From an uncultured Pseudomonadota bacterium (GTDB taxonomy: Bacteria; Pseudomonadota; Alphaproteobacteria; Rs-D84): 64,000 nt of DNA. The position numbers and the translations under genes were made by a program. Within the stretch, counting starts at the first letter, position 1; the number at the start of each line of letters is the position of its first letter. The notes below the pieces were generated by a model. The model had not been told where the DNA came from. It saw only the letters and a program-made list of their open reading frames with translations, and did no database searches. Where the stretch lies: NCBI GenBank assembly GCA_902781465.1, contig CACZJK010000001.1, positions 142,831 to 206,830 on the forward strand, written 5' to 3'. Positions 10,133 to 55,176 of the stretch are shown one piece after another.

Positions 10133-10176
10133 ATATATTGAAAAAAAGTGCTTTTTATGATATAATATAAACCAGT

Positions 10177-10222
10177 TCGACGGGGGATGCCGTCGATTTT
10201 TTTTATGCCGGGTTTTCCCGGC
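10177..10222 (+). terminator. Tandem terminator hairpins (CGACGGGGGATGCCGTCG then GCCGGGTTTTCCCGGC), each followed by a T-run
   Basis: Read directly downstream of the rmlD-like gene. Confidence 0.5.
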
Positions 10223-10249
10223 TTTTTTGTTATAACAAAAGGATAAATA

Positions 10250-11164
10250 ATGAATAAATTTATATTTTCTGGAAATGGTAAAAATAAAGATTTTTATTTT
10301 ACTTTTCCTTTCTTTTCAAATGCTGATATTGTTGTAAAAATCAACAATGATTTAGCGACCGGATATGGTGTTTTCTGTATTCCTGGTACAGGCAATAATG
10401 ATTTTCCTTTTACAGGTGGCCATATTCATTTTGCAACCGCACCAAAGACAACTGATGTCATAACCATAGAACGCAAATTGCAATTAAACCGCCTGATAGA
10501 TTATCAACCAACAGCGCCTCTTAATTCAACAACAGTTAATCAAGATATGAATTATTTCTTTGAATTGCTGAAAGATGTAAAAAGTGAATTGCTGGGTTTT
10601 GCAGAAACTTATAAAGAATTCACAGATACAGAAAGTGCGCAAGAATTGTTGGCGCGCATAGATGCTGTTATCGAAGAAATAGATAATCTTGGCGATATAT
10701 CAACGATAACAAGCAGTATATCAGAACTGGGCTCGTCGATAACAAGTTTGACTAATTCTTTGAACAGTTTGACAAGCACAGTCGGTGCGCATACGACAGA
10801 TATTGTGGCGCTTAGCGCTTTCAAAGACGGGGTTCTTGATTATGTGGTTGAATCGCAAGAACCAACCGCAGAAAACAATTATACCTGGTATCGAAAATAC
10901 AAATCTGGCTGGGTCGAACAAGGAGGTCAGATAACAAACAATAATGGTACTGAAAGAACTATATCTTTACCAATAACTATGACAAATACGAACTACACAT
11001 ATAACGATTGCTTTGAAACAATTATTCGCGAAGGCGGAAGCCCATGGCGAATAGTCGACACACCAAATGTATTAACAAACAAAACAACGACATCTTTTAC
11101 AAGATATATGCCAGATTGCGCAACAATAATACGTTGGAGTGTCTATGGCATTGCAAGCAATTAA
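10250..11164 (+). CDS. Phage tail-fibre-like protein with a T7 gp17-type N-terminal tail-attachment domain, a coiled-coil/Ser-Thr-rich shaft and a C-terminal globular tip
   Basis: N-terminus FSGNGKNKDFYFTFPFFSNADIVVKINN...DVITIERKLQLNRLIDYQP parallels T7 gp17 (DGSNRDFNIPFEYLARKFVVV...TTIELRRVTSTTDRLVDF); middle SSISELGSSITSLTNSLNSLTS repeats; followed by a hairpin terminator at 11165-11195. Confidence 0.55.
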   Translation: MNKFIFSGNGKNKDFYFTFPFFSNADIVVKINNDLATGYGVFCIPGTGNNDFPFTGGHIHFATAPKTTDVITIERKLQLNRLIDYQPTAPLNSTTVNQDMNYFFELLKDVKSELLGFAETYKEFTDTESAQELLARIDAVIEEIDNLGDISTITSSISELGSSITSLTNSLNSLTSTVGAHTTDIVALSAFKDGVLDYVVESQEPTAENNYTWYRKYKSGWVEQGGQITNNNGTERTISLPITMTNTNYTYNDCFETIIREGGSPWRIVDTPNVLTNKTTTSFTRYMPDCATIIRWSVYGIASN

Positions 11165-36972: not shown

Positions 36973-37251
36973 ATGAAAAAGAAAGTTGTTAAAAAATCAG
37001 TCAGCAAACCACAAACAAAAAAATGTAAATCTTGGATTTGGATTTTTGTTGCTTTTGTATTGGGTGGTATGATTGGCTATACGGCACATTACTTGGTTGT
37101 TAATTGGAACGGATTTTTTGTGACTTGCGCTGATGGTACGCGTCCGGATAAAAATGGTTGTTGTGTCGGCGAAGTTTATACAGATGCTGGCGATGGCTGG
37201 ATGGTGTGTTGTCCGGACGGGGGTGATAACTGTTTCCCACCACTGAAATAA
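36973..37251 (+). CDS. Small membrane protein with a Cys-rich C-terminus (92 aa)
   Basis: TM helix plus CADGTRPDKNGCCVGE...VCCPDGGDNC. Confidence 0.4.
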   Translation: MKKKVVKKSVSKPQTKKCKSWIWIFVAFVLGGMIGYTAHYLVVNWNGFFVTCADGTRPDKNGCCVGEVYTDAGDGWMVCCPDGGDNCFPPLK

Positions 37252-37270
37252 CAAAACACCGGCAAATGCC
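37248..37270 (+). terminator. Terminator hairpin ACCGGCAAATGCCGGT plus T-run (member of the recurring hairpin family)
   Basis: Read directly. Confidence 0.6.
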
Positions 37271-37336
37271 GGTTTTTTTATATCTTGAAAACGCACAATT
37301 TTTATATAAGAATAAAATAAAGAAAAGGTTGTTCTT

Positions 37337-37729: not shown

Positions 37730-38410
37730 ATGAAAAAATTGTTAATCTGGGATTTTGATGGTGTTATTGCAGACAGTGAAAAACTGTGGGTTCGTGCTTG
37801 GGATGAAATTTTAGTAAGTGAAAGAAATATAAAACTAAATGATGCTGAAAAAGCCGATTTGTTGGTCGGTGTGTCGGATAAAACGCGTCGTGAAAGACTG
37901 GAAAAATATATCTCTGGTTTGGTCTTAGATGATAATTTTATAAACAAGATTAATGAAAGGGAAATTTATCTGGGGACTAATTGTATGGTTGCAATAGATG
38001 GTGTTGAAAAAGTTATGGACAATAATAATTTTGAACATTGTATTGCAACAGGGGCAACAGCCACACAACACAAATGGAAAATGACCAGTTTTCAATGGAT
38101 AAAAAACTATATGTCAGACAAAGATTTTTTTACCGTTGATATGGTTGAACATGGAAAACCAGAACCTGATTTATTTTTATTGGCCGCTAAAACAAAAAAT
38201 TATGAACCAAAAGATTGCATAGTTATTGGTGACAGTGTTAACGATTTTATTGCTGCAAAATCTGCTGGTATGGATTGTATAGCATTTACAGGCGCCACAG
38301 GAAATAACACAAAAGAATATTCTGATAAATGTAAATTACTTGGTGTTTTTGCGGTTTGCGATAATATGGATGATGTAAATAAAAGTCTGAATAATTGGTT
38401 AGAAAAGTAA
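37730..38410 (+). CDS. HAD-superfamily hydrolase (beta-phosphoglucomutase/phosphatase-like)
   Basis: Motif I DFDGVI; motif IV GDSVNDFIAAKSAG. Confidence 0.7.
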   Translation: MKKLLIWDFDGVIADSEKLWVRAWDEILVSERNIKLNDAEKADLLVGVSDKTRRERLEKYISGLVLDDNFINKINEREIYLGTNCMVAIDGVEKVMDNNNFEHCIATGATATQHKWKMTSFQWIKNYMSDKDFFTVDMVEHGKPEPDLFLLAAKTKNYEPKDCIVIGDSVNDFIAAKSAGMDCIAFTGATGNNTKEYSDKCKLLGVFAVCDNMDDVNKSLNNWLEK

Positions 38411-38416
38411 GAAAAT

Positions 38417-38440
38417 ACCGGCAAATGCCGGTGTTTTGTT
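38417..38440 (+). terminator. Terminator hairpin ACCGGCAAATGCCGGT plus T-run
   Basis: Read directly. Confidence 0.6.
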
Positions 38441-38771
38441 GCTTTGTAAATTTTTGGCGTTAATGTGGGGGTGGGGTGCGCCTTGATAAACAATAACCAA
38501 ACCTAAATGCAAAAACTCTATTAAAAATATCCGCTTTTGCAGGTTTGCTAATTGTTCATCTGCGTATACGCCATGCGCTTCGCTCTGGCGGATCCACCCA
38601 AGGGTGGATTGGCTCGGCATAAATGCCTGCGCCGCATTCGTAATGTGTTTGCTGCATTTTATTTGCAAACACAAACTCATAGACGAACCAAACAACTTCG
38701 TTGTATGGCCTAATACCATAAACCACATCACAGCAAAACAAAAACCACCCAAAAGGGTGGTTTTAGTTTTG

Positions 38772-41567: not shown

Positions 41568-42121
41568 TGATTAAATTTGTCGGATCTTTTGAAACAGTTA
41601 AATCACTGCCAAATACACAGTTCGCAGAATACGCTTTTGTTGGGCGCAGTAATGTTGGTAAATCTTCGTTAATAAATGCTGTGCTGGGTGAAAAGGTTGC
41701 ACGAACTTCTAATACCCCAGGGCGTACCCAAAGTCTAAATTTATTTAATATGGATGATAAGTCAATGATTGTTGATTTGCCGGGTTATGGCTTTGCGCGT
41801 GTATCAAAGGCTGACGCAATGCGCTGGCTGGAAAGATTGGAAGAATATTTATTAAATCGTTCACAATTACGCAGGTTATTTGTTTTAATTGATTCGCGTA
41901 TTGGACCAAAAGATTCTGATTTAGATTTGATGGATTTTTGCGATAAAAATGGAATTTGTTATCAGGTTGTTTATACAAAGAAAGACAAAAAAATTCGTGA
42001 AAGCGACCAAGTAAAACTTTCGCATGAAAATCATCCTGCGATGATTGAAAGGGTTTTAGAAACTTCTGCGGAAAAGAAATATGGCCTTGATGAATTAAGA
42101 GATATTATCGGTGTTAAATAA
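41567..42121 (+). CDS. engB: Ribosome biogenesis GTP-binding protein YihA/EngB
   Basis: G1 GRSNVGKSS, G3 DLPGYG, G4 TKKD. Confidence 0.85.
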   Translation: MIKFVGSFETVKSLPNTQFAEYAFVGRSNVGKSSLINAVLGEKVARTSNTPGRTQSLNLFNMDDKSMIVDLPGYGFARVSKADAMRWLERLEEYLLNRSQLRRLFVLIDSRIGPKDSDLDLMDFCDKNGICYQVVYTKKDKKIRESDQVKLSHENHPAMIERVLETSAEKKYGLDELRDIIGVK

Positions 42122-44591
42122 TAACATTTTTAATGTTTCTAATCCGATGCGTATGCTGGATGCGCTGTGGTTTCAAATCGCGCAATATAAAAATGATTTT
42201 TCAAATGTTTTGATATTTTTGCCTTCGCGTCGTGCTATACGCAGTGTTGAAAGATTTATTTTTGAAAAAATAGGGCATGCGGTTATTTTACCAAATCTGG
42301 TTCCTTTGGGTGATGGTGTGGACGATGAAGAAGAAGTTTATGCTGACACCATATCAAATCGTGAACGCATAATTATACTGGCGCGTTTATTATCAATGGA
42401 CGCCAATGTTAAAAATATTGCAACTGCATTACCGCTTAGTCGTGATTTTATTCGTATGCAAGATTATATGGAAAATGAAGGCGTTCGAATAAATGATATA
42501 GATTGGACATCTTTAATTGATGATAAATATGCAACGCATTTCCAAAATAAAGCGCGCATACTGGATATATTAAAACAATTACCAGATGACAGATTGACGA
42601 CAACCCAAAAAAGAAATTCTGATATACGCGCATGGAAAAATCATTTGGATAAATATGATTGTGTTATTGTTTGTGGTTCAACGGCATCGGTGCCTGCTAC
42701 GGCAGATTTAATGGAATATGTGGCGGGGCTTTCAAATGGTAAAATTATTTTATCTGGGAAAATAAATGGTAATGAAACTGATTTTGAATTGGATACTAAT
42801 CCGTACCACAGTGAAAATTTATTTTTGAAAAGGTTGGGTTTGTCATTTGCTGATGTTCAAACTATTGATGTTGGGGACAGTGTGATTGATATTATGAATA
42901 CGGCCTTTGGAAATACTGGCGAACATATAGATAACAAGTTAGATAATTGTAAATTGATTGAATGTGCACGTGAAAGCGAAGAAGCCTTGGCCGCAACATA
43001 TATCGCAAAGCGTGCGATAAAAGAAAATAAATCTGTGTTGATAATTACACCCGATGCAGCGGCGAATCAGCGTATTAAATCAGAAATGGTGCGCGTGGGA
43101 ATTGATGCAGATTTTTCATCTGGCTTGTCTGGGACAATGACTAATCTTGGGCGTGCAATATTAAATTTATTTGATAATTGGATTGAAAATAATTGTGGTG
43201 AATTTGAAAAACTGTATGCACAAAGTAATTATAATTTATTTAATATGTTGGTGTCTTTTGTTGATTCTGAAAACAATTATGACTTTCAACCAAACTTCAC
43301 AATTGAAAATGAAAGCGATATTCCAATCTGGAACGCGATAAAAGAAACGGCTGATATATTATGTGCCAATGAAATAGTATTAAATATATTTGATGCGCGC
43401 GCGTTTATAGCCGATGCGATTGGATCTGTTTCAATTCGCCCGAATAAAAGTGATGATTGCAAGGTTTGTGTTTTGGGAACGATTGAATCGCGTATGCAGA
43501 CCGCAGATGTTATTATATTGACCGGACTTAACGAAGGGATGTTTCCGTCTTTGGGTTATGAAAATGCTTGGTTGCCACGTGATATAGCAAACAAGATTGG
43601 TTTGCCGTCGCCAAATCGCAAAGTATCTTTGATGGCATTAGATTTTATGAATTTATCGTGTGGGGCAGAGGTTTATTGGTTGCGTTCAAAACAATCTGGC
43701 GGAACATTGACGACAGAATCACGTTTCCTTTCGCGTGTTCGTGTTGCAATTGGCGATATAGAAACTGATGATGAAATATTGAATATGGTAAGGTTGACGG
43801 ACGATGTACCATATCAGCCTTTGGATTATTCACCGCCAACACCACCGATTGATAAAAGTGATATCTTTGTGACGGACATAGAATTACTGATTCATAATCC
43901 GTATGCGTTTTATGTTAAACATATTTTAAAACTGCGCAAAAAAGATGATTATTGGGTTTTGCCTGATGCGCGTAATTTTGGAATTTTAATACATGATGTA
44001 ATTGAAAATGCGCGGGATTTTAATGCCGACAATTTGATAAAAGAAATGGATACTCGTGCAAAACAAGTTTTGCCACCTGATTCAATATTGTTTTATTTTT
44101 GGCATAAAAGATTTTGTGAAATCGCACCTTTTGTCGAAGAATTTTTTAAGAATAAATCGATTAAATACAAAGAAGTCTTGGGCAGTGTAAATATTATGGG
44201 GCGCAATGTTCGTGCACGTGCTGATATTATCTGGGACGGTGTGGTTATGGATATAAAAACTGGTTCTGCACCAAGTAAAAAACAGTTGTTGGATGGTACG
44301 ATGCCGCAATTACCATTGGAAGCATTTATAATGCAAAACAATGGTTTTCCATTGAAAATGAGTGATGTTTCAATTACACCGATAATACAATTTTTACAAT
44401 TGAAAAATGGTAATCCTGAATTGATAGAATACAGTGATGATATTGCACGCGAAATGATTGAAAACAGTGTTCAAAAAGTTCGCGAATTATTCGGACAATA
44501 CAGCACTGATAAAATTGCATCATACGAATACCGCGAAGCAACCGGCGCCAAATATCATGAATACGATGACCTGGCACGTGTAAGCGATTAA
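42111..44591 (+). CDS. addB: Double-strand break repair protein AddB (alphaproteobacterial type, short form)
   Basis: N-terminus DALWFQIA...VLIFLPSRRAIRSVERFIF matches the AddB N-terminus; C-terminal RecB-like nuclease motif MDIKTGSAPSKKQLLDGTMPQLPLEAF; no addA adjacent. Confidence 0.65.
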   Translation: MLNNNIFNVSNPMRMLDALWFQIAQYKNDFSNVLIFLPSRRAIRSVERFIFEKIGHAVILPNLVPLGDGVDDEEEVYADTISNRERIIILARLLSMDANVKNIATALPLSRDFIRMQDYMENEGVRINDIDWTSLIDDKYATHFQNKARILDILKQLPDDRLTTTQKRNSDIRAWKNHLDKYDCVIVCGSTASVPATADLMEYVAGLSNGKIILSGKINGNETDFELDTNPYHSENLFLKRLGLSFADVQTIDVGDSVIDIMNTAFGNTGEHIDNKLDNCKLIECARESEEALAATYIAKRAIKENKSVLIITPDAAANQRIKSEMVRVGIDADFSSGLSGTMTNLGRAILNLFDNWIENNCGEFEKLYAQSNYNLFNMLVSFVDSENNYDFQPNFTIENESDIPIWNAIKETADILCANEIVLNIFDARAFIADAIGSVSIRPNKSDDCKVCVLGTIESRMQTADVIILTGLNEGMFPSLGYENAWLPRDIANKIGLPSPNRKVSLMALDFMNLSCGAEVYWLRSKQSGGTLTTESRFLSRVRVAIGDIETDDEILNMVRLTDDVPYQPLDYSPPTPPIDKSDIFVTDIELLIHNPYAFYVKHILKLRKKDDYWVLPDARNFGILIHDVIENARDFNADNLIKEMDTRAKQVLPPDSILFYFWHKRFCEIAPFVEEFFKNKSIKYKEVLGSVNIMGRNVRARADIIWDGVVMDIKTGSAPSKKQLLDGTMPQLPLEAFIMQNNGFPLKMSDVSITPIIQFLQLKNGNPELIEYSDDIAREMIENSVQKVRELFGQYSTDKIASYEYREATGAKYHEYDDLARVSD

Positions 44592-44615
44592 AAATTTTTT
44601 TAGTATTTTTATTTC

Positions 44616-44644
44616 TTGTGAATGTTTTTGTTTAATGTTATAAT
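44616..44644 (+). promoter_or_regulatory. Sigma70 promoter TTGTGA-17-TATAAT driving the structured leader and secreted-protein operon
   Basis: TTGTGA 44616-44621; TATAAT 44639-44644. Confidence 0.5.
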
Positions 44645-44650
44645 TTTTCC

Positions 44651-44848
44651 ATCAGGAAGAGTTTTCCTGATGGGACTCAAAACCCTTGCCAACGAGTTGT
44701 CCTTTGAAGGACGTAAAAGAACTCCAACTTATGGTTGGAGGGTCGTGAATATATTGAATAAGCGCGCAATTTCTCGTTGAATTGTTTTGAGCCTCCAACC
44801 GCCCGATTTTCTGGCGGTATTTTGTTGAAAGCAAACAGGGAGGAAATC
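44651..44848 (+). ncRNA. Structured 5' leader (about 200 nt) with alternative pairings, an anti-SD CCUCC element and an intrinsic terminator; candidate riboswitch/attenuator
   Basis: Hairpin CCATCAGGAA/TTCCTGATGG; long-range pairs CTCAAAAC(44676)/GTTTTGAG(44784) and CAACGAG(44690)/CTCGTTG(44773); GGTTGGAGG (44733) can pair either with CTCCAAC (44722) or with CCTCCAACC (44792), which also complements the SD AGGGAGG (44837); terminator CCGCC-cgattttct-GGCGG plus U-run at 44799-44826. Confidence 0.45.
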
Positions 44849-45547
44849 GTGAAAAAGATTTTAATAATATTATCAATGCTGTGTTTTGGTGCGTATGCTG
44901 AACAAATAACGATAAATTGGGGTGTTGATAATAAGTCTTATACAACAACAACATGTGAAATTGGTGGCGATGTCGTATTGCCAGTCGTATCAAAACGTGG
45001 CTATGTTTTTCGTGGCTGGAAAGCAGAACATTTTGATCGTGGAACGTTTGCAAATTGGACTACAGTTCCAAATATTGTTAATGGTTATGCAAGTGATTCT
45101 TATGGTAGCCAGATGCCAAAAAAGGGAGATTATATAATAATTAGTGATGCAAGTGACTATAACACAGTAAAAATTTATTCTGTGCAAGTGAATTCTCCAA
45201 GTTTTCATAAAAATTTTACAGTAACGTATCAAGGAGTTATACATGAATATAAAAACATAGAACAAGGAAACCAAGATTTTTATATTTTAGATGGTGCTAT
45301 ACGTATAACATCTACAAAAAACACATGGCGATATATAGCCGTACAAGATATTGAATATAAAAATGTTGTTTATCATAGTGGCGAGGTTTTTGTTGCGAAT
45401 AATAGCTGGTATTACGTAGATTTAACTGTAAATGCCAGTTTATATTCAGATAAAATATCTGGTACATGGAAATTCGTATATGACGGTGTATGGGAGCAAG
45501 ATGGTATATCTGGTTGGAAACCAGTCGAACAAATAATTGGTGAATAA
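44849..45547 (+). CDS. Secreted protein with Listeria-Bacteroides (Flg_new-type) repeat; GTG start after RBS AGGGAGG
   Basis: Signal peptide VKKILIILSMLCFGAYA; repeat signature ITINWGVDN...GDVVLPVVSKRGYVFRGWK. The six-frame ORF start at 44777 would run through the leader. Confidence 0.55.
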   Translation: MKKILIILSMLCFGAYAEQITINWGVDNKSYTTTTCEIGGDVVLPVVSKRGYVFRGWKAEHFDRGTFANWTTVPNIVNGYASDSYGSQMPKKGDYIIISDASDYNTVKIYSVQVNSPSFHKNFTVTYQGVIHEYKNIEQGNQDFYILDGAIRITSTKNTWRYIAVQDIEYKNVVYHSGEVFVANNSWYYVDLTVNASLYSDKISGTWKFVYDGVWEQDGISGWKPVEQIIGE

Positions 45548-46022
45548 TATGAAATATATATTGGTTGTTTTTCTGTTGTTTTCTTTTCCTGTTTTGGCCG
45601 ATGATTTATATACAAATGATATTATCGGTGGTTGCGGTGACGCGTATTATTACACTGCTGAATTTGAACCAATTTCTTATACGTGTTTGTCTGGACAGTT
45701 TCTACCTGCGGGTGCAATATCTTGTCTGCCATGTCCGGATGGTTATACCTGTTCTGGTGGAACATATGCTTTCAACGCAAATCAAACCCAGGGTATTAGT
45801 GAAGGCGATATATTGGTCACCAATGCAATTGGCAGTTGTTCACCACAATTCAACCAAAGTTTTAGTGCGATATTTGAACCAAATACAATAACGATAAACT
45901 GGGACGATGGGACGAATACTGTTCAAAATACTTGCATATACGGACAATCAATAACTTTGCCCCCAACACCAGTTCGTCCGGGTTATAAATTCGGGGGGTG
46001 GCGGGTAAAACGTAAAGATTGA
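45537..46022 (+). CDS. Secreted Cys-rich protein with a Listeria-Bacteroides repeat
   Basis: Signal peptide MKYILVVFLLFSFPVLA; ITINWDDGTN...GQSITLPPTPVRPGYKFGGWRV. Confidence 0.55.
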   Translation: MVNNMKYILVVFLLFSFPVLADDLYTNDIIGGCGDAYYYTAEFEPISYTCLSGQFLPAGAISCLPCPDGYTCSGGTYAFNANQTQGISEGDILVTNAIGSCSPQFNQSFSAIFEPNTITINWDDGTNTVQNTCIYGQSITLPPTPVRPGYKFGGWRVKRKD

Positions 46023-46023
46023 T

Positions 46024-46797
46024 TTAATCTTTGATTTCCAACATCAACCCGCAATGGTCGGTTGGTTTGTCGGCCAATCTTGGTTCTATATCTATTTCAC
46101 AATTTTTAATCATTTTTGCGGCCGTTTTATTACAAAGGAAATAATCCAGGCGTAATCCTTGTTTATTGCCCACTGTGTCGCGACCACGATATCCGTACCA
46201 TGTATAATCTATGTCGTTTGGATGTAATGTTCGCCATGCGTCCACCCAACCCATATCCAACCATTGTTGCATAATATCGCGTGCCGCCGGTGCAGATATA
46301 GATGAACCTATATAATTTTTCGGATTCCAAATATCGCGGTCTTCAATTGCAACATTATAATCGCCTGCGATGATAACCGGTTCTTCGCTATCGATATATT
46401 GCGATATATATTGTGTAAATGCGCGCATCCAATCCAATTTATATGGAAACTTTGGTGATTCAATACAATCGCCATTTGGCATATATACGTTTATCAGACG
46501 AACACGTCCGTCAATTACACTTTCCAAAAATCTGGCGTTTATATCAGGGTATGTCGGCATGCCCATAGTGACATCTTCGATTGAATACTTTGAAAAAGTT
46601 GCAACCCCGTTCCAAGATTTTTGACCAAAAACTTTTATATTATATCCGTATTCATCCAATAAATTATATGGGAAATTAGCATTTTCTACTTTTAATTCTT
46701 GGACCAATATTGTGTCGTATTCATTTTTGCGCAAAATATCCATAAAACTTTCAATGTGTGCGCGAATTGAATTGATATTTAATGTTAGTATTTTCAT
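46024..46797 (-). CDS. xthA: Exodeoxyribonuclease III
   Basis: MKILTLNINSIRA…LVQELK…DYNV…DHCGL (EEP-fold Xth motifs). Confidence 0.9.
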   Translation of the reverse strand: MKILTLNINSIRAHIESFMDILRKNEYDTILVQELKVENANFPYNLLDEYGYNIKVFGQKSWNGVATFSKYSIEDVTMGMPTYPDINARFLESVIDGRVRLINVYMPNGDCIESPKFPYKLDWMRAFTQYISQYIDSEEPVIIAGDYNVAIEDRDIWNPKNYIGSSISAPAARDIMQQWLDMGWVDAWRTLHPNDIDYTWYGYRGRDTVGNKQGLRLDYFLCNKTAAKMIKNCEIDIEPRLADKPTDHCGLMLEIKD

Positions 46798-46867: not shown

Positions 46868-48460
46868 ATGAATATGTATCAAGTGTTCAAGCAAGTGGCG
46901 AAAGAATCGCCAGATGCTTTGTTTCTGGTACGCGAAAAAATCACTTTCAAAAAAGCGTTATCAATGATTCATGCACGTGCAACTGCATTGCACAAGATGG
47001 GGGTGAAAAAAGGCGATGTTGTTGGTTTGTTATCGCATAATATACCTGAATTTCCATTGACTCTTTTCGCGATATGGTATTTGGGTGGAACTGTTTTGTT
47101 GCTGGATACAAATTTAACACCGTTTGAATATGACAATATGACTAAATTGGTTAAGTGTAAATTTGTATGTGCGGAAAAATCTTTTTTCTATAAAGCAAAA
47201 GGTTTCAAGTTCTTTGATATTCAAACCCCAGATGAAAAGGCTGATTCTAAATTAAAACCGGCAGAATTAGACGAAAATGATATTGCGACTTTATCATTTA
47301 CGTCTGGTTCAACTGGCAATCCAAAGGTTGTTCCGTTAACACATGGTAATTTGAAAAATTCTTCTGATTATTATGCAGATATGGGCGATTGGATTCATAA
47401 AAATGAAATAATGTATGGATTTTTACCATTGTATCATATCTTTGGTTTTGCGGCTGGTATTTTGGCACCAATGTATTTTCATATGGGAATATTATTACAA
47501 CCAACAGTCAATCCGCGTAATATCTTGGAAGATTTCAAGATTTATAAACCACATTGTATTCCTGCGGTTCCGCGCCTTTATGAAGTTTTTCGTAATAAAA
47601 TTATCGAAGGCGTCAAAGAAAAACGCATGTGGTGGTTCGTATCTTTTGTGTTAAAACATCAAAAGTTTTTACGTGCGATTGGTTTGGGCAAGTTGGTTAA
47701 AAAAGTCCAAAAGCCTTTGCGTGATATCTTTGGCGGTCGTGTGAATTTGATGATTGCCGGGGGTGCTGCGACCAAGCCAGAGGTTGAAAAATTCTATGAA
47801 TCACTGGGTATTACCTTTGTCCAAGGCTATGGTATGACAGAAACAGTAGGGCCTTTCTGTTGTTCGCGTCCATCAAAACATCGGGTGCCATTTGCATTTG
47901 GAACACCTATTGGTTGTTCTGAATGTACAATTCGTGATGCCGATGAAAAAGGTATTGGAACGCTTTGGGTTCGTGGACCAAATATCTTCAAAGGCTATCT
48001 GAATAATAAAGAAGCCAATAAAGATTCTTTTGATAAGGACGGTTGGTTTAATACGGGTGACCTTGTTTATCTGGATAAATATAATCAATATCATTTCGCC
48101 GGTCGTAAAAAACAAGTAATTGTTTTGGACAGTGGTAAAAATGTATATCCGGATGAATTAGAAGCATTGTTTATGGAAATAGATGGTGTTAAAAATGTTG
48201 CAGTCTTTGAACATAAAATCAAAGATAAAACTGTCACTTATGCTGTGTTACAAGTTGAAAAGGGTACGACACTTATAAAATTAGGTGCCCAGATTGCACT
48301 GGCTAATCGCAAGGTTGCGCCTTATAAATGGGTGACACACTTTGCAATGACAACTGATGATTTGCCTGTGACCAGTACTCAAAAGGTAAAACATCATCTT
48401 GTGCGTCAGAATTTAATTGATGGAAAATATCCGAATAATACAGAAAATATTTTAAGGTAA
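46868..48460 (+). CDS. ANL-superfamily adenylate-forming enzyme (acyl-CoA synthetase/AMP-ligase-like), paralog 1 of 3
   Basis: Motifs TSGSTGNPKVV (A3), GYGMTET (A5), GWFNTGDL (A7), GRKKQVIVLDSGKNVYPDELE (A8). Confidence 0.8.
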   Translation: MNMYQVFKQVAKESPDALFLVREKITFKKALSMIHARATALHKMGVKKGDVVGLLSHNIPEFPLTLFAIWYLGGTVLLLDTNLTPFEYDNMTKLVKCKFVCAEKSFFYKAKGFKFFDIQTPDEKADSKLKPAELDENDIATLSFTSGSTGNPKVVPLTHGNLKNSSDYYADMGDWIHKNEIMYGFLPLYHIFGFAAGILAPMYFHMGILLQPTVNPRNILEDFKIYKPHCIPAVPRLYEVFRNKIIEGVKEKRMWWFVSFVLKHQKFLRAIGLGKLVKKVQKPLRDIFGGRVNLMIAGGAATKPEVEKFYESLGITFVQGYGMTETVGPFCCSRPSKHRVPFAFGTPIGCSECTIRDADEKGIGTLWVRGPNIFKGYLNNKEANKDSFDKDGWFNTGDLVYLDKYNQYHFAGRKKQVIVLDSGKNVYPDELEALFMEIDGVKNVAVFEHKIKDKTVTYAVLQVEKGTTLIKLGAQIALANRKVAPYKWVTHFAMTTDDLPVTSTQKVKHHLVRQNLIDGKYPNNTENILR

Positions 48461-48472
48461 GGAATAGAAATT

Positions 48473-50053
48473 ATGACAATGTATGAATTACTGGAAAAAA
48501 CAGTAAAAGAAAATCCAAAGACTTTGTTTTTGGTTCGTGAAAATGTCACTTTTGCAGAATTCCCAAATTTGGTAAAAGCACGTGCGGCAACTTTACATAA
48601 TTTGGGTGTTAAACCAGGTGATGTTGTCGGTTTGCTTTCGCATAATATACCTGAATTTGTATCAACATTGTTCGCAATATGGTATCTGGGCGGAACAGTT
48701 TTATTGTTGGATACAAATCTGGCATCTGCGGAATATGAAAATATGACAGAACGCGTTGGTTGTAAATTTGTATGTGCGGAAAAATCTTTTTTCTATGAAA
48801 CAAAAAAATTTAAGTTCTTTGATATTCAAACGAAAGATAAAGGTGTTGACGAATCTTTGAAGCCATATCCATTAAAAGACAGCGATATCGCAACTTTGTC
48901 TTTTACTTCTGGTTCAACAGGAACACCAAAAGTTGTGCCACTGACACATTTTAATTTAGTTTCTTGTTCTGATAATTTGGAATATTTGAATCAATGGTTA
49001 AAACCTGGTGAAATGTTCTATGCGTTTTTACCGCTTTACCATGTGTTTGGATTTGCAGTTGGTTTCTTGGCACCACTTCATTTCGGTATGGGAATATTAT
49101 TGCAATCAACCATCAATCCAAATGCGATTATGGCAGACTTTGCACAATATAAGCCTCAGGTTATACCGGCTGTGCCAAAGTTATGGGAAATATTCCGTAA
49201 AAAGATTATCGAAGGTATCAAAGCCAAAAAGAAATGGGGATTGGTATCTTTCATTATGAACAATCAAAAAATGTTGCGCATGCTTGGTTTGTCGAAATTG
49301 GTCGATAAAGTCTTGAACCAAATTCGCGGTATTTTTGGTGGTCGTGCAAGATTGTTGGTTGCCGGTGGTGCCGCCACAAAACCGGAAGTCGAAAAGTTTT
49401 ATACTCAACTTGGTATGGCTTTCGTTCAAGGTTATGGTATGACAGAAACCGTTGGGCCAATCTGTTGTTCAAGACCGCTTAAAAAACGTGTTGCGTATGC
49501 TTTTGGTGCACCAATGGGCGATAACGAAGTTCAAATCCGTAATAAAGATGAAAATGGTATCGGTATGTTATGGGTCAAAGGCAACCAAATCTTTGGCGGC
49601 TATATGAATAATGATGCGGCCAACAAAGAATCTTTTGATAAAGAAGGTTGGTTCTGCACAGGTGATTTGGTTTGGATGGATAAAAATGGCGAATTGCATT
49701 TTGCTGGTCGTAAAAAACAAGTAATTGTTTTGGACAGTGGTAAAAATGTATATCCTGATGAACTGGAAGGCTTGTTTATCGAAATCGAAGGTGTAAAAAG
49801 TGTTGCCGTATTTGAACATGAAGTAAATGGAAAAACTGTTGCATACGGAGTATTCAGCGTTGAACCAGATATGACAATGGATAAATTAGCAGCCGCCATC
49901 ACAGAAAAAAATAAAAAAGTTGCGTCATATAAATGGGTGACACACTTTGCGATGACAACAGACGATTTGCCTGTGACCAGTACACAAAAAATAAAACACC
50001 ATGTTGTTCGTCAATGGTTGATTGATGGTAAATACACAGACAGACATGAGTAA
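48473..50053 (+). CDS. ANL-superfamily adenylate-forming enzyme, paralog 2 of 3
   Basis: Same motif set; about two-thirds identical to paralog 1 by eye; shares identical DNA stretches (for example GTAATTGTTTTGGACAGTGGTAAAAATGTATATCC). Confidence 0.8.
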   Translation: MTMYELLEKTVKENPKTLFLVRENVTFAEFPNLVKARAATLHNLGVKPGDVVGLLSHNIPEFVSTLFAIWYLGGTVLLLDTNLASAEYENMTERVGCKFVCAEKSFFYETKKFKFFDIQTKDKGVDESLKPYPLKDSDIATLSFTSGSTGTPKVVPLTHFNLVSCSDNLEYLNQWLKPGEMFYAFLPLYHVFGFAVGFLAPLHFGMGILLQSTINPNAIMADFAQYKPQVIPAVPKLWEIFRKKIIEGIKAKKKWGLVSFIMNNQKMLRMLGLSKLVDKVLNQIRGIFGGRARLLVAGGAATKPEVEKFYTQLGMAFVQGYGMTETVGPICCSRPLKKRVAYAFGAPMGDNEVQIRNKDENGIGMLWVKGNQIFGGYMNNDAANKESFDKEGWFCTGDLVWMDKNGELHFAGRKKQVIVLDSGKNVYPDELEGLFIEIEGVKSVAVFEHEVNGKTVAYGVFSVEPDMTMDKLAAAITEKNKKVASYKWVTHFAMTTDDLPVTSTQKIKHHVVRQWLIDGKYTDRHE

Positions 50054-50087
50054 GTTTTAACAAAAAGATATAAAGGTAGGTATTAAA

Positions 50088-51668
50088 ATGAATATGTATC
50101 AAAAATTAGAAAATGCAGTTGCACAATGGCCTGAAAATTTATTTTTGGTTCGTGAAAATGTCACTTATTCTCAATTCTTGGAACAAGTGCGCGCACGTGC
50201 TGCAACTTTGAACAAGGCCGGTGTGAAACACGGTGATGTTATTGGGGTATTGTCACATAATTTGCCACAATTTCCATTAACTCTGTTCGCGATTTGGTAT
50301 TTGGGTGCAACAGCATTGATGTTGGATACAAATCTTACACCATTGGAATACGATAAAATGTGTGAAATTGCAGGTTGTAAATTTGTTTGTGCAGAACCTT
50401 CGTTCTTTTACAAGACGAAGCAATTTAAATTCTATGACATCACAAAGAAAGACGGTGCAATCGATTATGATTTAAGACCTTATCCATCTGAATCAACAGA
50501 TGTTGCAACAATGTCTTTCACATCAGGATCAACAGGAACACCAAAAGTTGTGCCATTAACACATTTTAATTTAACAGAATGTGCAAATTCTTTGGAAGAT
50601 ATGTCAGATTATTTCCATTCAGGTGATGTTATGTATGGATTTTTACCATTGTATCATATCTTTGGTTTTGCGATTGGTATTTTGGCAACTGTTCATTATG
50701 GGGCATCATTGGTTTTGCAACCAACAGTCAATCCTAAATACATTTTGGACGATTTCAAGAAATTCCAACCTCACGTTATACCGGCTGTGCCACGTGTTTG
50801 GGAATTGTTCCGTAATAAAATTGTCACAACAATGAAAGAACAAGGCAAATGGCGCGTTGCATCTTTTATTTTAAGAAATCAAAAAACATTGAAAGATATG
50901 GGTTTGGAATTTTTTGTTCGCAAAGTTCAAGAACCAATTTTAAGTGTTTTTGGTGGACGCGCTAAATTATTGATTGCCGGTGGCGCTGCGACCAAACCAG
51001 AGGTTGAAAATTTCTATGAATCTTTGGGTATGGCATTTATCCAGGGTTATGGTTTAACAGAAACTGTTGGGCCAATCTGTATTTCAAAACCAACAAATAA
51101 AAGATTGGCTTATTCGATTGGCGCCACAACATCTAACAATGAATTCCAAATTCGTGATAAAGACGAAAATGGTGTTGGAACATTATGGTTGCGTGGACAT
51201 CAGGTATTTAACGGCTATCTGAATAATCCAGAAGTTAACGCCGAAGTTTTTGATCAAGATGGTTGGTTTAACACTGGCGATATGATGTACACGGATAAAA
51301 ATGGTGAATTACATTTTGCCGGCCGTAAAAAACAAGTAATTGTTTTGGACAGTGGTAAAAATGTATATCCTGATGAATTGGAAGGTTTGTTTATCGAAAT
51401 ACCTGGCGTTAAAAATGTAGCAGTCTTTGAACACAAAGTAGGTGATAAAACTGTTGCCTATGGCGTATTCAGTGTCGATAAAGAAATGACAATTGATAAA
51501 TTGGCCAAAGAAATTGCAGAACAAAATAAAAAGGTTGCATCTTATAAATGGGTGACCCATTTTGCGATGACAACAGAAGATTTACCAATGACCAGCACAC
51601 AAAAGGTTAAACACCACGTTGTGCGCAAGAATTTGATTGATGGTAAATATCCAGACAGAAAAGAATAA
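50088..51668 (+). CDS. ANL-superfamily adenylate-forming enzyme, paralog 3 of 3
   Basis: Same motif set; tandem with paralogs 1 and 2. Confidence 0.8.
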   Translation: MNMYQKLENAVAQWPENLFLVRENVTYSQFLEQVRARAATLNKAGVKHGDVIGVLSHNLPQFPLTLFAIWYLGATALMLDTNLTPLEYDKMCEIAGCKFVCAEPSFFYKTKQFKFYDITKKDGAIDYDLRPYPSESTDVATMSFTSGSTGTPKVVPLTHFNLTECANSLEDMSDYFHSGDVMYGFLPLYHIFGFAIGILATVHYGASLVLQPTVNPKYILDDFKKFQPHVIPAVPRVWELFRNKIVTTMKEQGKWRVASFILRNQKTLKDMGLEFFVRKVQEPILSVFGGRAKLLIAGGAATKPEVENFYESLGMAFIQGYGLTETVGPICISKPTNKRLAYSIGATTSNNEFQIRDKDENGVGTLWLRGHQVFNGYLNNPEVNAEVFDQDGWFNTGDMMYTDKNGELHFAGRKKQVIVLDSGKNVYPDELEGLFIEIPGVKNVAVFEHKVGDKTVAYGVFSVDKEMTIDKLAKEIAEQNKKVASYKWVTHFAMTTEDLPMTSTQKVKHHVVRKNLIDGKYPDRKE

Positions 51669-53162: not shown

Positions 53163-54458
53163 ATGGAAAATAACGATAATATTTTTGCTCTGTCTTCTGC
53201 ACCTGGGAAATCAGGTGTTGCCGTCGTTCGTATCAGCGGTGGCGATTTGGGCGATTTATTTAAACGTATTATAGATAAAAAAGAATTTGAATCGCGTCAT
53301 GCTTATTTTACCAACTTTCGCGACAACAACGGCGAATTGATAGACCAATGTATCGCAATATTTTTTGCTGCGCCGAATTCTTTTACAGGTGAAGATATTA
53401 TTGAAATTCATTCGCATGGTGCGATGGCTGTTATAAATAAAATATTTGATTTCTTGCGCGAACATAATTGTCGTATTGCAACACGTGGCGAATTTTCAAG
53501 ACGCGCTTTCTATAACAATAAAATGGATTTGGCTGATGTAGATGGTTTGATTGCTTTGTTGGATGCGCAAACAGATAAACAGCGTGCAATCGCGTTAAAA
53601 TCTTTAACTGGGAAGGATTCAAAAATCTATCAAAATTGGCGCGAACAAATGATTGAAATATCGGCCTATGCGGCGGCTATTCTGGATTATGATTCTGACG
53701 ATTTGCCGGCAAATATTGATAAAAAGATTTTATCGCAAGCACAAAATTTATTGGATGAAATAAAAACATCTATGTCTGGATATCGTGCAACACGCGCAAT
53801 TCAAAATGGTTTTAATATAGTGTTGGTTGGTGAAACTAATGTTGGTAAATCATCTATATTTAATAAACTGGTTGGGTCAAATCGTGCGATAGTGTCAAGT
53901 ATCGCTGGCACAACACGCGATGTGGTGTCGCAACAAATTGATATAGATGGATATTTGGTGAATCTATCTGATACAGCCGGTATAAGGGATGCATCTGATA
54001 CAATTGAAAAAATAGGTATCGAACGCACCCAGGCCGAGGCTGATAAAGCAGACCTGATTATCCATGTATATAATGAATTGCCAGAAATAATAAACGAAAA
54101 TGAAATTACAGTTATAAATAAATCTGATTTATTAAAAGACAAATCAAATAAAAATGTAATTTATACATCCGTAAAAAATAATGATGGTTTTGATATATTG
54201 TTAAACACAATCAAAACGAAAATGCATGAATTGATGGGTGGTTCTGAATCACGTATAGCAATCAATGAACGCACATACGAATTATTAAATGAAACAGTTT
54301 TTGAATTAGACACCGCAATAAAAAATTATGATGGTAATTATGATATATTCGCAGAACACGTTAGACGCGGCGGTGATTCAATCGGGAAAATATTAGGTGT
54401 CATAACAACAAATGAAATCGCCGACGCCACTTTTTCAAGGTTGTGTTTGGGAAAATAA
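53163..54458 (+). CDS. mnmE: tRNA modification GTPase MnmE
   Basis: G-domain GETNVGKSS, DTAGIR; C-terminal C(L)GK motif; stop/start overlap with ruvA (TAAATG). Confidence 0.9.
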   Translation: MENNDNIFALSSAPGKSGVAVVRISGGDLGDLFKRIIDKKEFESRHAYFTNFRDNNGELIDQCIAIFFAAPNSFTGEDIIEIHSHGAMAVINKIFDFLREHNCRIATRGEFSRRAFYNNKMDLADVDGLIALLDAQTDKQRAIALKSLTGKDSKIYQNWREQMIEISAYAAAILDYDSDDLPANIDKKILSQAQNLLDEIKTSMSGYRATRAIQNGFNIVLVGETNVGKSSIFNKLVGSNRAIVSSIAGTTRDVVSQQIDIDGYLVNLSDTAGIRDASDTIEKIGIERTQAEADKADLIIHVYNELPEIINENEITVINKSDLLKDKSNKNVIYTSVKNNDGFDILLNTIKTKMHELMGGSESRIAINERTYELLNETVFELDTAIKNYDGNYDIFAEHVRRGGDSIGKILGVITTNEIADATFSRLCLGK

Positions 54459-54464
54459 AAAAAC

Positions 54465-54488
54465 ACCGGCATTTGCCGGTTTTTATGT
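54465..54488 (+). terminator. Terminator hairpin ACCGGCATTTGCCGGT plus T-run (after mnmE)
   Basis: Read directly. Confidence 0.6.
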
Positions 54489-54517
54489 TTGATTTTTTGG
54501 ATAATCCTATTTATAAT
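54489..54517 (+). promoter_or_regulatory. Sigma70 promoter TTGATT-17-TATAAT for structured leader B
   Basis: TTGATT 54489-54494; TATAAT 54512-54517. Confidence 0.5.
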
Positions 54518-54523
54518 AACGCA

Positions 54524-54725
54524 TGAATCCGATGGGAATTGGGTTTGGGATTTAGAACATCCCATAGTAGTGCGGTGCATAAAGCATCGTAATCTGTTTA
54601 TGGTGCTTTTGTGCCATATCCCTGACTTATATGGTCGGGGTGCCACTTTGGTGGAGCATTCACTACTATGCTGTTCTAACCCCCGACCGCTTATTTTTTG
54701 GCGGTCTTTGTTTTTTATAAAAAAC
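54524..54725 (+). ncRNA. Structured leader B (about 200 nt): long interrupted closing helix, internal hairpins, antiterminator/terminator alternative; candidate transcriptional riboswitch
   Basis: TTAGAACA(54552)/TGTTCTAA(54672) and CATAGTAGTG(54563)/CACTACTATG(54661) form an 18-bp interrupted helix around about 90 nt; GGTCGGGG (54633) complements CCCCGACC (54681), which overlaps terminator stem GACCGC/GCGGTC (54685-54706) plus U-run; the ORF RBS follows at 54726. Confidence 0.45.
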
Positions 54726-54735
54726 AAGGAACGAT

Positions 54736-55110
54736 ATGAACAATTCAATTTTTATCAAAGGCGTTAAATTTCAAAGAACAACGCCAAAAGCAATAAGAAA
54801 AGATATTTCGTCAAATATATTATTTTTTATGATATCACAATCTGGCGCAATTGACAGGCGCGGAACAATCTATTTCTTTACACCAACCGGTGCTTACTTT
54901 ATGGAACGGGAAGATTATACAGCCGAATTCAAAGATGAACTTTTTCTGTTTGCCTCTGAATGGAATTTAGTAAATGCATATTTTTGTGATTTTTTGATTA
55001 TAAGACCAGATATTTATGATTCTTTTGTTCGTGAATTATGCGCACGAAATCAACCTTACTTTTGGTTTGATACAGCAATAGAAGTTTATGGAACTAAATA
55101 TTGTGATTAA
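54736..55110 (+). CDS. Hypothetical protein (124 aa) downstream of leader B
   Basis: RBS AAGGA then ATG; no recognisable motif. Confidence 0.5.
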   Translation: MNNSIFIKGVKFQRTTPKAIRKDISSNILFFMISQSGAIDRRGTIYFFTPTGAYFMEREDYTAEFKDELFLFASEWNLVNAYFCDFLIIRPDIYDSFVRELCARNQPYFWFDTAIEVYGTKYCD

Positions 55111-55115
55111 AAAAA

Positions 55116-55135
55116 ACACCGGCAAATGCCGGTGT
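55116..55135 (+). terminator. Terminator hairpin ACACCGGCAAATGCCGGTGT plus T-run
   Basis: Read directly. Confidence 0.6.
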
Positions 55136-55150
55136 TTTTGATATTGTTTT

Positions 55151-55176
55151 CCCGCCTTCGCCAAGGCTTCGGTGGG
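55151..55176 (+). repeat. Conserved hairpin motif copy 2: CCCGCC-TTC-GCC-AA-GGC-TTC-GGTGGG
   Basis: Same core as 22949-22972 with a compensatory outer stem. Confidence 0.4.

Follow-up and report, generated by a model that had tools for sequence, protein, structure and literature searches.

The DNA analysed here is a stretch of 64,000 nucleotides (nt), called the window below, from an uncultured alphaproteobacterium of the Rs-D84 lineage (assembly GCA_902781465.1, contig CACZJK010000001.1, positions 142,831 to 206,830 of the forward strand). Between a gene for an AddB-like nuclease (42111-44591), which is its upstream neighbour, and xth, a convergent gene for an exonuclease (46024-46797, minus strand), the window contains an untranslated leader followed by two genes on the plus strand. 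The first of these genes (44849-45547) encodes a protein of 232 amino acids (aa) with a signal-peptide-like N-terminus and a Listeria-Bacteroides-repeat-like motif, and has no Pfam hit of its own; the second (45537-46022) overlaps it and encodes a secreted protein of 161 aa with a Listeria-Bacteroides repeat (Flg_new, PF09479, E = 2.8e-8). An earlier note, made from the sequence alone, had described in front of these genes a promoter, a hairpin, two nested long-range helices, a switch strand, a terminator, a Shine-Dalgarno (SD) sequence and a GTG start, and all of these elements were found where it had placed them. Our analysis establishes that this stretch is a genuine structured leader RNA of about 185 bases with its own promoter and terminator, and suggests that promoter and leader probably form a self-contained unit governing the downstream genes by conditional transcription termination.

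The promoter (44616-44644, on the plus strand like all other parts of the leader) is of the sigma-70 type, with the -35 box TTGTGA (44616-44621), a 17-nt spacer and the extended -10 box TGtTATAAT (TATAAT at 44639-44644); in the promoter scan it scored 10/12, with TG ahead of the -10 box, and transcription would start a few nucleotides 3' of this box, immediately before the first hairpin. This 5'-terminal hairpin, P1 (44649-44673), has 10 base pairs (bp) formed by CCATCAGGAA (44649-44658) and TTCCTGATGG (44664-44673) around the loop GAGTT. It is followed by a small hairpin, Px (44672-44685), with a GGG/CCC stem, the GG of which shares bases with the final two pairs of P1 in the window copy. The Px loop, CTCAAAA (44676-44682), doubles as the 5' strand of the long-range helix P2, formed by CTCAAAAC (44676-44683) and GTTTTGAG (44784-44791). 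Next come strand A (CAACGAG, 44690-44696), which pairs with A' (CTCGTTG, 44773-44779), and a variable hairpin, P3 (44699-44712, GTCCT/AGGAC), which is missing in some copies of the family described below and enlarged or doubled in others.

The central part of the leader is organised around three segments. Segment 2 (44733-44742, GGTTGGAGGG, with the core GGTTGGAGG at 44733-44741) is a shared switch strand whose partner is either segment 1 (44722-44728, CTCCAAC), the anti-antiterminator strand with which it makes hairpin P4, or segment 3 (44792-44800, CCTCCAACC), the antiterminator partner. Two hairpins lie between segments 2 and 3, namely P4a (44742-44765), which has a conserved 15-nt loop, GAATATATTGAATAA (44747-44761), and P5 (44767-44784, CAATT/AATTG), whose loop, TCTCGTTG, holds A'. 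The final three nucleotides of segment 3 are also the first three of the terminator stem. The intrinsic terminator (44798-44826) pairs ACCGCC (44798-44803) with GGCGGT (44813-44818) across a 9-nt loop and ends in the U-rich tail TATTTTGTT; a simple terminator scan missed it because the loop limit of that scan was 8. Translation signals of the first gene follow at 44837-44851, with the SD sequence AGGGAGG at 44837-44843 and the GTG start at 44849. The minimum free energy (MFE) of the leader was -75.3 kcal/mol, compared to -52.6 ± 4.4 for 200 dinucleotide shuffles (z = -5.2, 0/200 as low), and both nested helices of the earlier note were recovered in the MFE structure.

The leader belongs to a family of related RNAs. 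The product of the AddB-like gene used as a query yielded 80 loci amounting to 840 kb of AddB-anchored DNA, and nhmmer together with a six-sequence alignment revealed that other genomes contain homologous leaders at different places, in which compensatory changes are obvious. These loci and the window were then scanned with a covariance model (R1), which detected 17 copies in the 840 kb of loci as well as two in the window. In addition, a metagenome scan with a subfamily-A pattern gave 67 loci, 62 of which hold genuine copies scoring 36-186 bits, nearly all of them at least 57; the remaining five (L085, L100, L102, L132 and L138) were discarded as unrelated chance matches. In three of these (L100 728-754, L102 1080-1105 and L138 12228-12253) the 22-nt-plus pattern had matched an apparent eukaryotic interspersed repeat with flanks conserved among the three loci, adjoined in L102 by a (GA)n microsatellite. 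The same pattern search gave zero matches in viral contigs. Altogether about 80 homologous copies were recovered from loci, metagenomes and window, at a density of approximately one leader per 30-50 kb of sampled DNA, and the working alignment, A6, comprises 72 subfamily-A copies, 70 of them distinct. This is a previously uncatalogued multi-copy family in small-genome gut bacteria, Candidatus Enterousia and relatives.

Three subfamilies were distinguished. Subfamily A, to which the leader described above belongs, has GGTTGGAGGG and the loop GAATATATTGAATAA, whereas subfamily B carries segments of the type CCCTGAC / GGTCGGGG / CCCCGACC, and subfamily C is found upstream of Stealth-type genes. 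The second window copy belongs to subfamily B. The leader is not a simple repeat within the window, and this copy was found only through the covariance model (40 bits, E = 9e-12, subfamily-A model with filters off); it lies at 54519-54712 on the plus strand, or at 54519-54738 and, with its promoter, 54489-54738 when the range is taken more widely, and is probably the 'leader B' of the earlier reader. It has the promoter TTGATT-17 nt-TATAAT, P1, Px/P2, an A:A' helix (ATAGTAGTG/CACTACTAT), P5, a terminator and the segments CCCTGAC / GGTCGGGG / CCCCCGACC, with a plain small hairpin in place of the conserved P4a loop, and the start codon at 54736, ATG, is that of a gene for a 124-aa protein of unknown function. 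The subfamily-C leaders (L056 443-589, L073 458-614, L065 442-585 and L071 468-607, all on the minus strand) lie about 3.5 kb upstream of the addB-like gene and precede genes for Stealth (CR1/CR2) capsule-type phosphotransferases; their architecture is trimmed, with the A strand at the extreme 5' end and no clear Px/P2. Two tandem arrays were also present, both on the plus strand, one of four copies (L084 151-1027) and one of two (L141 4687-5075). The copies within an array are mutually diverged, each with its own promoter and terminator, and only the final one precedes an open reading frame (ORF), so the ORF-less copies are maintained. Weak model matches around 3000-3100 in many loci, inside an rsmI-like gene, and at window 10171-10252 were not accepted as members. 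The latter region (window 10150-10250, plus strand) holds another short promoter-proximal leader outside the family, in which two consecutive elements, each a hairpin plus U-run (CGACGGGGGATGCCGTCG-T8 and GCCGGGTTTTCCCGGC-T6), stand between TATGATATAAT and an ATG at 10250.

Promoter and gene order are shared by most of the family. Where enough upstream sequence is available, almost all copies show TGnTAnAAT with its end at model position 1, together with a TTG-type -35 box about 17 nt upstream; the exceptions are the four copies in front of Stealth genes, which have no clear -10 box at that position. Furthermore, 70 of the 80 distinct copies are followed, 0-75 nt (mostly 16-36) past the U-run, by an SD sequence and an ORF on the same strand; among the others, three run off the contig and four precede another copy.

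Further evidence for the proposed pairings comes from covariation, a search for which in relatives had been proposed in the earlier note. The covariance model itself speaks for a real structure, as it recovers copies at 74-186 bits. The structure composed of P1, Px, P2, P4, P4a, P5 and the terminator was evaluated on A6 against 500 shuffles and slid controls. In the alignment 92.2% of the cells were paired, compared to 74.6% in the shuffles, and both sides of a pair had changed in 515 cells, compared to 153; none of the 500 shuffles reached the real value of any measure, and the slid controls were only 34-57% paired. In P1, P2, P4a, P5 and the terminator most pairs showed both-side changes. 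These helices formed part of the search model, which favours them, yet they are also visible in alignments made with MAFFT only. For P1, both-side changes were true of seven of the eight aligned pairs, with 97% of the cells paired among the 70 distinct copies. The five core pairs of P2 (45-274 to 49-269) are formed in about 97-100% of the copies and all of them have both-side changes (one pair, for example, is AU in 22 copies, GC in 18, UA in 13 and CG in 12), the sixth pair (44-275) being unpaired in 45 of 68 copies. P4, the helix of segments 1 and 2, is a contiguous run of 7-12 pairs in 73 of the 80 copies. The P4a stem has both-side changes in four of its five pairs, and its loop is conserved also in those subfamily-A copies that were found without using the loop as a search pattern; a related loop occurs upstream of Stealth genes. 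In P5 all five aligned pairs show some both-side change, with more than two copies changed in just two of them and three pairs near-invariant (UA 37 vs AU 31 at one variable pair; UA 26, UG 13, AU 11 and 19 unpaired at the other), and the stem differs in subfamilies B and C (AGCAU/AUGCU and AUCAC/GUGAU). The terminator, with the consensus GGTGGTtTtt including the U-run, was paired in 99% of the cells with both-side changes in four of its six pairs (AU 43 vs GC 17 at one of them), so that the terminator of the earlier note is both present and co-varying.

A:A', the segment 2:segment 3 helix and Px were absent from the search model and therefore provide independent tests. For A:A', the duplex energy averaged -8.9 kcal/mol when each copy was combined with its own loop and -4.1 when combined with the loops of other copies; in 40 copies the own loop ranked 1-3 of 70, and the helix is retained in copies that have no P3 and in subfamilies B and C. 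The CAACGAG/CTCGTTG helix of the earlier note is thus genuine, but a second conserved hairpin absent from that note, P5, competes with it. The most strictly kept helix of all is segment 2:segment 3, with 9-11 contiguous pairs in 79 of the 80 copies. At least eight sequence types of segment 2 occur, among them CTCCTGAC/GGTCAGGAGG/CCTCCTGACC, GGCAGGAGG/CCTCCTGCC and GGTCGGGGAG/CTCCCTGACC, each with a matching segment 3, and in subfamily B the match of segments 2 and 3 reaches positions that segment 1 does not touch (GGGGAG/CUCCCC vs GGGGUG/CACCCC). Segment 2 therefore co-varies with both of its partners, as expected if it is the switch strand with two alternative partners postulated before.

Px is a hairpin of 3-5 bp after P1 that can be drawn in 73 of 74 copies, with the stem types GGGU/ACCC, GAGG/CCUC, GGAU/AUCC, GGAGU/ACUCC, GGAC/GUCC and GGGA/UCCC; within subfamily A its aligned columns have few both-side changes, and the support that the sequences lend to Px is moderate. 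RNAalifold proposed an alternative pairing of the same G's, GGGG after P1 with CUCC of segment 3. Both sides of it are nearly invariant, hence covariation can neither support nor exclude it, and Px, which shows compensatory stem types, appears the preferable of the two. The helix CTCAAAAC/GTTTTGAG, which the earlier note had described as simply nested, does exist, but its first strand sits in the loop of Px. Judging from established pseudoknot stereochemistry, the geometry of Px/P2 (a first loop of 1-3 nt, a second stem of 6-7 bp and no spacer) is probably that of a classical H-type pseudoknot. The selection acts on the plus-strand RNA, as indicated by many G-U pairs (GU 46 at pair 7-35; UG 35 at pair 208-237) and by a model score of 165 bits that drops to 8 bits on the reverse strand.

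These helices cannot all coexist. Because A' adjoins or overlaps the 3' strand of P5, full formation of A:A' precludes that of P5; likewise, the two strands of A:A', and also those of P2, lie on either side of segment 2, with the second strand ahead of segment 3, and both helices consequently cross the segment 2:segment 3 helix. Two incompatible folds result. Fold 1, the terminator fold, combines P1, Px/P2, A:A', P3, P4 (segment 1:segment 2), P4a and the terminator. Fold 2, the antiterminator fold, combines P1, Px, P3 and the segment 2:segment 3 helix around P4a and P5, without the terminator, and may include P2 as a tertiary pseudoknot. Fold 1 was the unconstrained MFE structure in 81% of the copies.

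The proposed default-off attenuator would work as follows. Transcription would begin just before P1 and the emerging RNA would take one of the two folds. In fold 1 segment 3 would be left free, the terminator hairpin would form and transcription would stop at about position 44826. In fold 2 the pairing of segment 2 with segment 3 (9-11 bp) would remove the first three pairs of the terminator and RNA polymerase would read into the gene. Since the helices of fold 1 can form before their fold-2 competitors are transcribed, and fold 1 is also the more stable, the default is expected to be termination, that is, OFF, and an effector favouring fold 2 would turn the genes ON. Such an effector could stabilise the junction of segment 2:segment 3, P4a, P5 and P2, or hold strand A or segment 1. 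The computed basis of this proposal consists of the promoter, two co-varying helix sets, their mutual exclusivity, the overlap of one of them with the terminator and the position upstream of ORFs. From this basis we infer that termination does take place, that the leader switches in vivo and that the switch is towards ON. The comparative data also support the more general idea of the earlier note that the leader regulates in cis through terminator and antiterminator pairings that exclude each other. A further idea, sequestration of the SD sequence by a complementary CCUCC, is predicted for only part of the family: the CCTCC of segment 3 does complement the SD sequence, and the computed pairing probability is 0.99 in the window copy, but of 60 copies only 15 have a value above 0.5 and 29 have one below 0.1, so that the data do not support sequestration as a family-wide trait.

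Several points weigh against conditional termination as we propose it. Premature termination and read-through are themselves predictions from sequence. In a nested energy model, fold 2 is less stable than fold 1 by a mean of 12.4 kcal/mol for the full leader, and by 8.6 kcal/mol for a transcript cut before the 3' half of the terminator; fold 2 being clearly the less stable, switching needs an input that we do not see. This model cannot credit P2 to fold 2, and if P2 (6-7 bp, A/U-rich and worth several kcal/mol by a rough, uncomputed estimate) persists there, the gap would be much smaller. The genes downstream share no common pathway among the 57 proteins scanned, and thus give no clue to the signal. 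Across the family no universal ligand pocket is evident, the P4a loop, its only long conserved single-stranded motif, being missing from some subfamily-B copies. Additionally, the four ORF-less tandem copies in L084 and L141 suggest that the terminated RNA may itself function, and these copies fit either a titratable factor or an added role in trans.

With regard to the signal, the regulated genes are very mixed and structure is conserved more than sequence, which makes a global signal or a trans-acting macromolecule likelier than a pathway-specific metabolite; an RNA-binding antiterminator protein or an RNA are candidates for such a macromolecule. If the leader is an attenuator, we regard a trans-acting protein or RNA as the leading candidate, though short of an even chance, and a global small molecule as a weaker but serious one; a physical or kinetic cue seems unlikely, as does, to about the same degree, the absence of any regulation, and a pathway-specific metabolite very unlikely.

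Other explanations were weighed against the attenuator, the closest to it being a classical riboswitch for a small molecule or ion, with the aptamer in the junction of fold 2 (segment 2:segment 3, P4a, P5 and P2) or in that of fold 1 (A:A', P3, P4 and P4a). The multi-helix junction, the pseudoknot, the highly conserved 15-nt loop and the platform overlapping the terminator are what one would look for in a riboswitch, and in subfamily A the P4a loop and the junction nucleotides are strongly conserved. Several riboswitch classes occur in tandem, as do some of the leaders, and the many copies per genome before surface and secreted genes resemble the distribution of riboswitches for cyclic di-GMP (c-di-GMP). 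We nevertheless consider it rather unlikely: no Rfam riboswitch matched even at E ≤ 10, the downstream genes are unrelated (secreted repeat and Cys-rich proteins, XRE regulators, HsdM, an ABC transporter, Stealth), few nucleotides are conserved over subfamilies A, B and C, with the P4a loop replaced in the second window copy, and every tandem unit has a promoter, unlike the usual build of tandem riboswitches. The promoters and terminators on every copy, the maintenance of diverged ORF-less tandem copies (in the arrays of four, L084, and of two, L141), the terminator fold as the default and the CCUCC in segments 1 and 3 could instead mean that the terminated transcript of about 185 nt is the product, a multi-copy trans-acting small RNA (sRNA) acting in an anti-SD-like manner through CCUCC or as a decoy for a factor, the ORFs being expressed by leaky read-through. 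This is improbable, given that the SD sequence and start on the same strand so close behind 70 of the 80 copies are unexpected for free-standing genes, that the CCUCC motifs lie within helices in both folds and that the pairing kept most strictly (79/80) is that of the antiterminator, for which a pure sRNA would have no use.

That same retention of the antiterminator bears on a constitutive structured 5' untranslated region (UTR), serving as mRNA stabiliser or insulator or fixing a low expression through a leaky terminator, with the alternative pairings as steps of a folding pathway. 5' hairpins protect mRNAs, and P1 stands at the transcript start in all copies; moreover, no evident ligand pocket is common to the subfamilies and the terminator fold dominates energetically. 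But two exclusive helix sets are both kept by compensatory change over many sequence types, and if there were no switching it would be difficult to see why a terminator-destroying helix should be selected, so we give a constitutive UTR little credence, about as little as an sRNA. Least probable by far are attenuation by a leader peptide and action of the inverted repeats as recombination sites at the DNA level. In subfamily A, GGAGGG is followed after 3-4 nt by a conserved GUG AAU AUA UUG AAU AA, which could be a short ORF starting at the GUG after the GGAGG of segment 2, and segments 1, 2 and 3 are indeed inverted repeats in DNA. However, 11 of 64 copies have CTG as the candidate start, its spacing from the SD-like sequence is just 3-4 nt, the peptides vary in length from 4 to more than 35 residues and share no conserved C-terminus, and the motif is missing in subfamily B. 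On the start codons, the spacing and the variable length the leader peptide was rejected; the repeats, for their part, measure just 9-10 bp and are separated by about 50 bp, and the G-U pairs and compensatory long-range changes denote selection at the RNA level, on the plus strand, against both the peptide and the DNA reading. Conditional termination thus remains the explanation we favour.

The proteins encoded downstream of the leaders are diverse. Signal-peptide-like N-termini were found in 30 of 70, including Listeria-Bacteroides-repeat proteins, Cys-rich proteins and one with a YadA anchor. Among the 57 proteins scanned, Pfam matches were to HTH_31 (7), HTH_3 (5) and HTH_19 (4), which may overlap in the same proteins and represent small XRE-type helix-turn-helix proteins, to Flg_new (5) and, once each, to Stealth, HsdM, ABC_membrane and YadA_anchor; most had no Pfam match. 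Nearly all of the 80 AddB loci derive from rumen and gut metagenome-assembled genomes that carry the label Candidatus Enterousia or uncultured Alphaproteobacteria. Genomes of the order Rs-D84, uncultured bacteria of gut and rumen, measure about 0.75-1.0 Mb and have a strongly reduced metabolism (PMC12306168).

In most relatives addB adjoins xth directly, and at this junction the window has a variable insert, 44592-46023, which comprises the leader and the two genes for secreted proteins; since most relatives have addB-xth without the leader, the latter is a feature neither of the 3' end of addB nor of xth. The junction holds a leader of the window's type in L006 and L007, a diverged leader with other secreted Listeria-Bacteroides-repeat genes in L001 and L029, and an unrelated gene without leader in L002. 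The addB/xth junction appears as a variable hotspot, seen also in L001, L029, L002, L005 and L017 and empty in most relatives, whose contents differ between secreted-protein genes with a subfamily-A leader, with a subfamily-B leader or with none (L002). Elsewhere in the window, three tandem paralogous genes for AMP-binding (acyl/aryl-CoA ligase-like) proteins of about 526-530 aa follow at 46868-51668 (plus strand), with 63-85% DNA identity in blocks, and a near-identical terminator hairpin, AAACACCGGCAAATGCCGGTGTTTTT, which looks like a repeated terminator module, stands at four gene ends (37246-37291, 38405-38450, 54453-54498 and 55106-55151).

Little is known on gene control in Candidatus Enterousia and Rs-D84, and our literature searches found no description of RNA elements in either. 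The leader precedes genes for that part of the proteome which is exposed at the surface and varies most, and thus probably constitutes a major point of control over dealings with host or partner. A bolder proposal, possible but in our opinion doubtful, is a genome-wide RNA gate: a portable default-off cassette placed, in genomes of only about 0.75-1.0 Mb, before possibly 15-30 accessory genes (for surface and secreted proteins, XRE-type regulators, a restriction-modification subunit and capsule-type enzymes) and answering to one common cue, either a new ligand class or a dedicated RNA-binding antiterminator, with the ORF-less tandems as decoys that tune the response. If true, these uncultured gut Alphaproteobacteria with reduced genomes would rely on it as their main device for regulating genes of host or partner interaction. 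In any case, covariation directly reveals both states of the switch, along with the second helix exchange and the pseudoknot, which makes the family an unusually clear case, and the family offers an orphan regulatory RNA suited to a hunt for ligand or protein, as well as a compact natural promoter-plus-attenuator module.

Regarding known RNA systems, Rfam at gathering thresholds found only tRNAs in the whole window, in agreement with the earlier statement that the leader matches no recognised riboswitch consensus. At E ≤ 10 the leader gave only sub-threshold matches to sRNA-Xcc1 and sroD, 20 other copies gave no consistent family, and neither the T-box nor the known riboswitch models, GEMM included, matched the leader or these 20 copies; none of the 57 scanned downstream proteins is related to amino acids, as would be expected of T-box targets. 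The best near-match, sRNA-Xcc1 (RF02221), is a small RNA encoded in integron cassettes and first described in Xanthomonas campestris (PMC2996969). It reached 34.1 bits at 44733-44808, where the gathering score is 53, and resembles the outline of fold 2 in its outer G-rich/C-rich stem (corresponding to segment 2:segment 3) around two hairpins, followed by CCC and U's. However, only one of the 20 other copies matches it at E ≤ 10 (L094, 32.9 bits), and the match includes UUUGAG, the P2 strand, whose sequence varies freely among relatives; in addition, the leader copies examined are chromosomal and intergenic, with their own promoter and upstream of ORFs, no search for integrase or attC having been made. 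Being below threshold here and essentially absent in the other copies, membership in sRNA-Xcc1 was rejected.

In copy number and gene mix the family is reminiscent of the c-di-GMP-I (GEMM) riboswitches, which occur in many copies per genome before heterogeneous surface, secreted and regulatory genes, use terminator platforms and are occasionally found in tandem. The likeness extends to the terminator platform and the tandems, but the architecture is another one, and the leader family has no evident ligand-binding core common to all subfamilies. Multi-copy sRNAs offer a second parallel: LhrC1-5 of Listeria and the 'cuckoo' RNAs CcsR1-4 of Rhodobacter are families with tandem copies and C-rich anti-SD motifs, and the leaders share with them paralogous copies, some in tandem, each ended by a terminator and with CCUCC-type motifs. 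In contrast to these sRNAs, about 88% of the leader copies are 5' leaders of ORFs, their C-rich motifs lie in stems and the antiterminator is conserved.

The closest correspondence is with leaders built from a terminator, an antiterminator and an anti-antiterminator, such as riboswitch platforms, T-box leaders, the RAT elements of BglG/LicT and PyrR-controlled leaders. Like these, the leader is promoter-proximal, its terminator lies just 5' of the SD sequence, and a shared strand pairs either upstream, with the terminator permitted, or with the 5' flank of the terminator, which is then blocked, and here both of these pairings co-vary. Every defining feature of an intrinsic-terminator attenuator that can be tested on sequence is present, at least as predicted: promoter, SD sequence and ORF, terminator, overlapping alternative pairing and a competitor for it. 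The differences are that no catalogued leader shares sequence or model similarity with it, that two exchanges are coupled here (A:A' with P5 and segment 1:segment 2 with segment 2:segment 3) and joined by a loop-to-strand pseudoknot, and that the genes are unrelated accessory ones, with a promoter on each copy and ORF-less copies in tandem. The structured leaders therefore make up a family that is new but functionally of a known kind, unusual in its coupled exchanges, its pseudoknot, its built-in promoter, its many copies in very small genomes, its mixed regulon and its ORF-less tandems.

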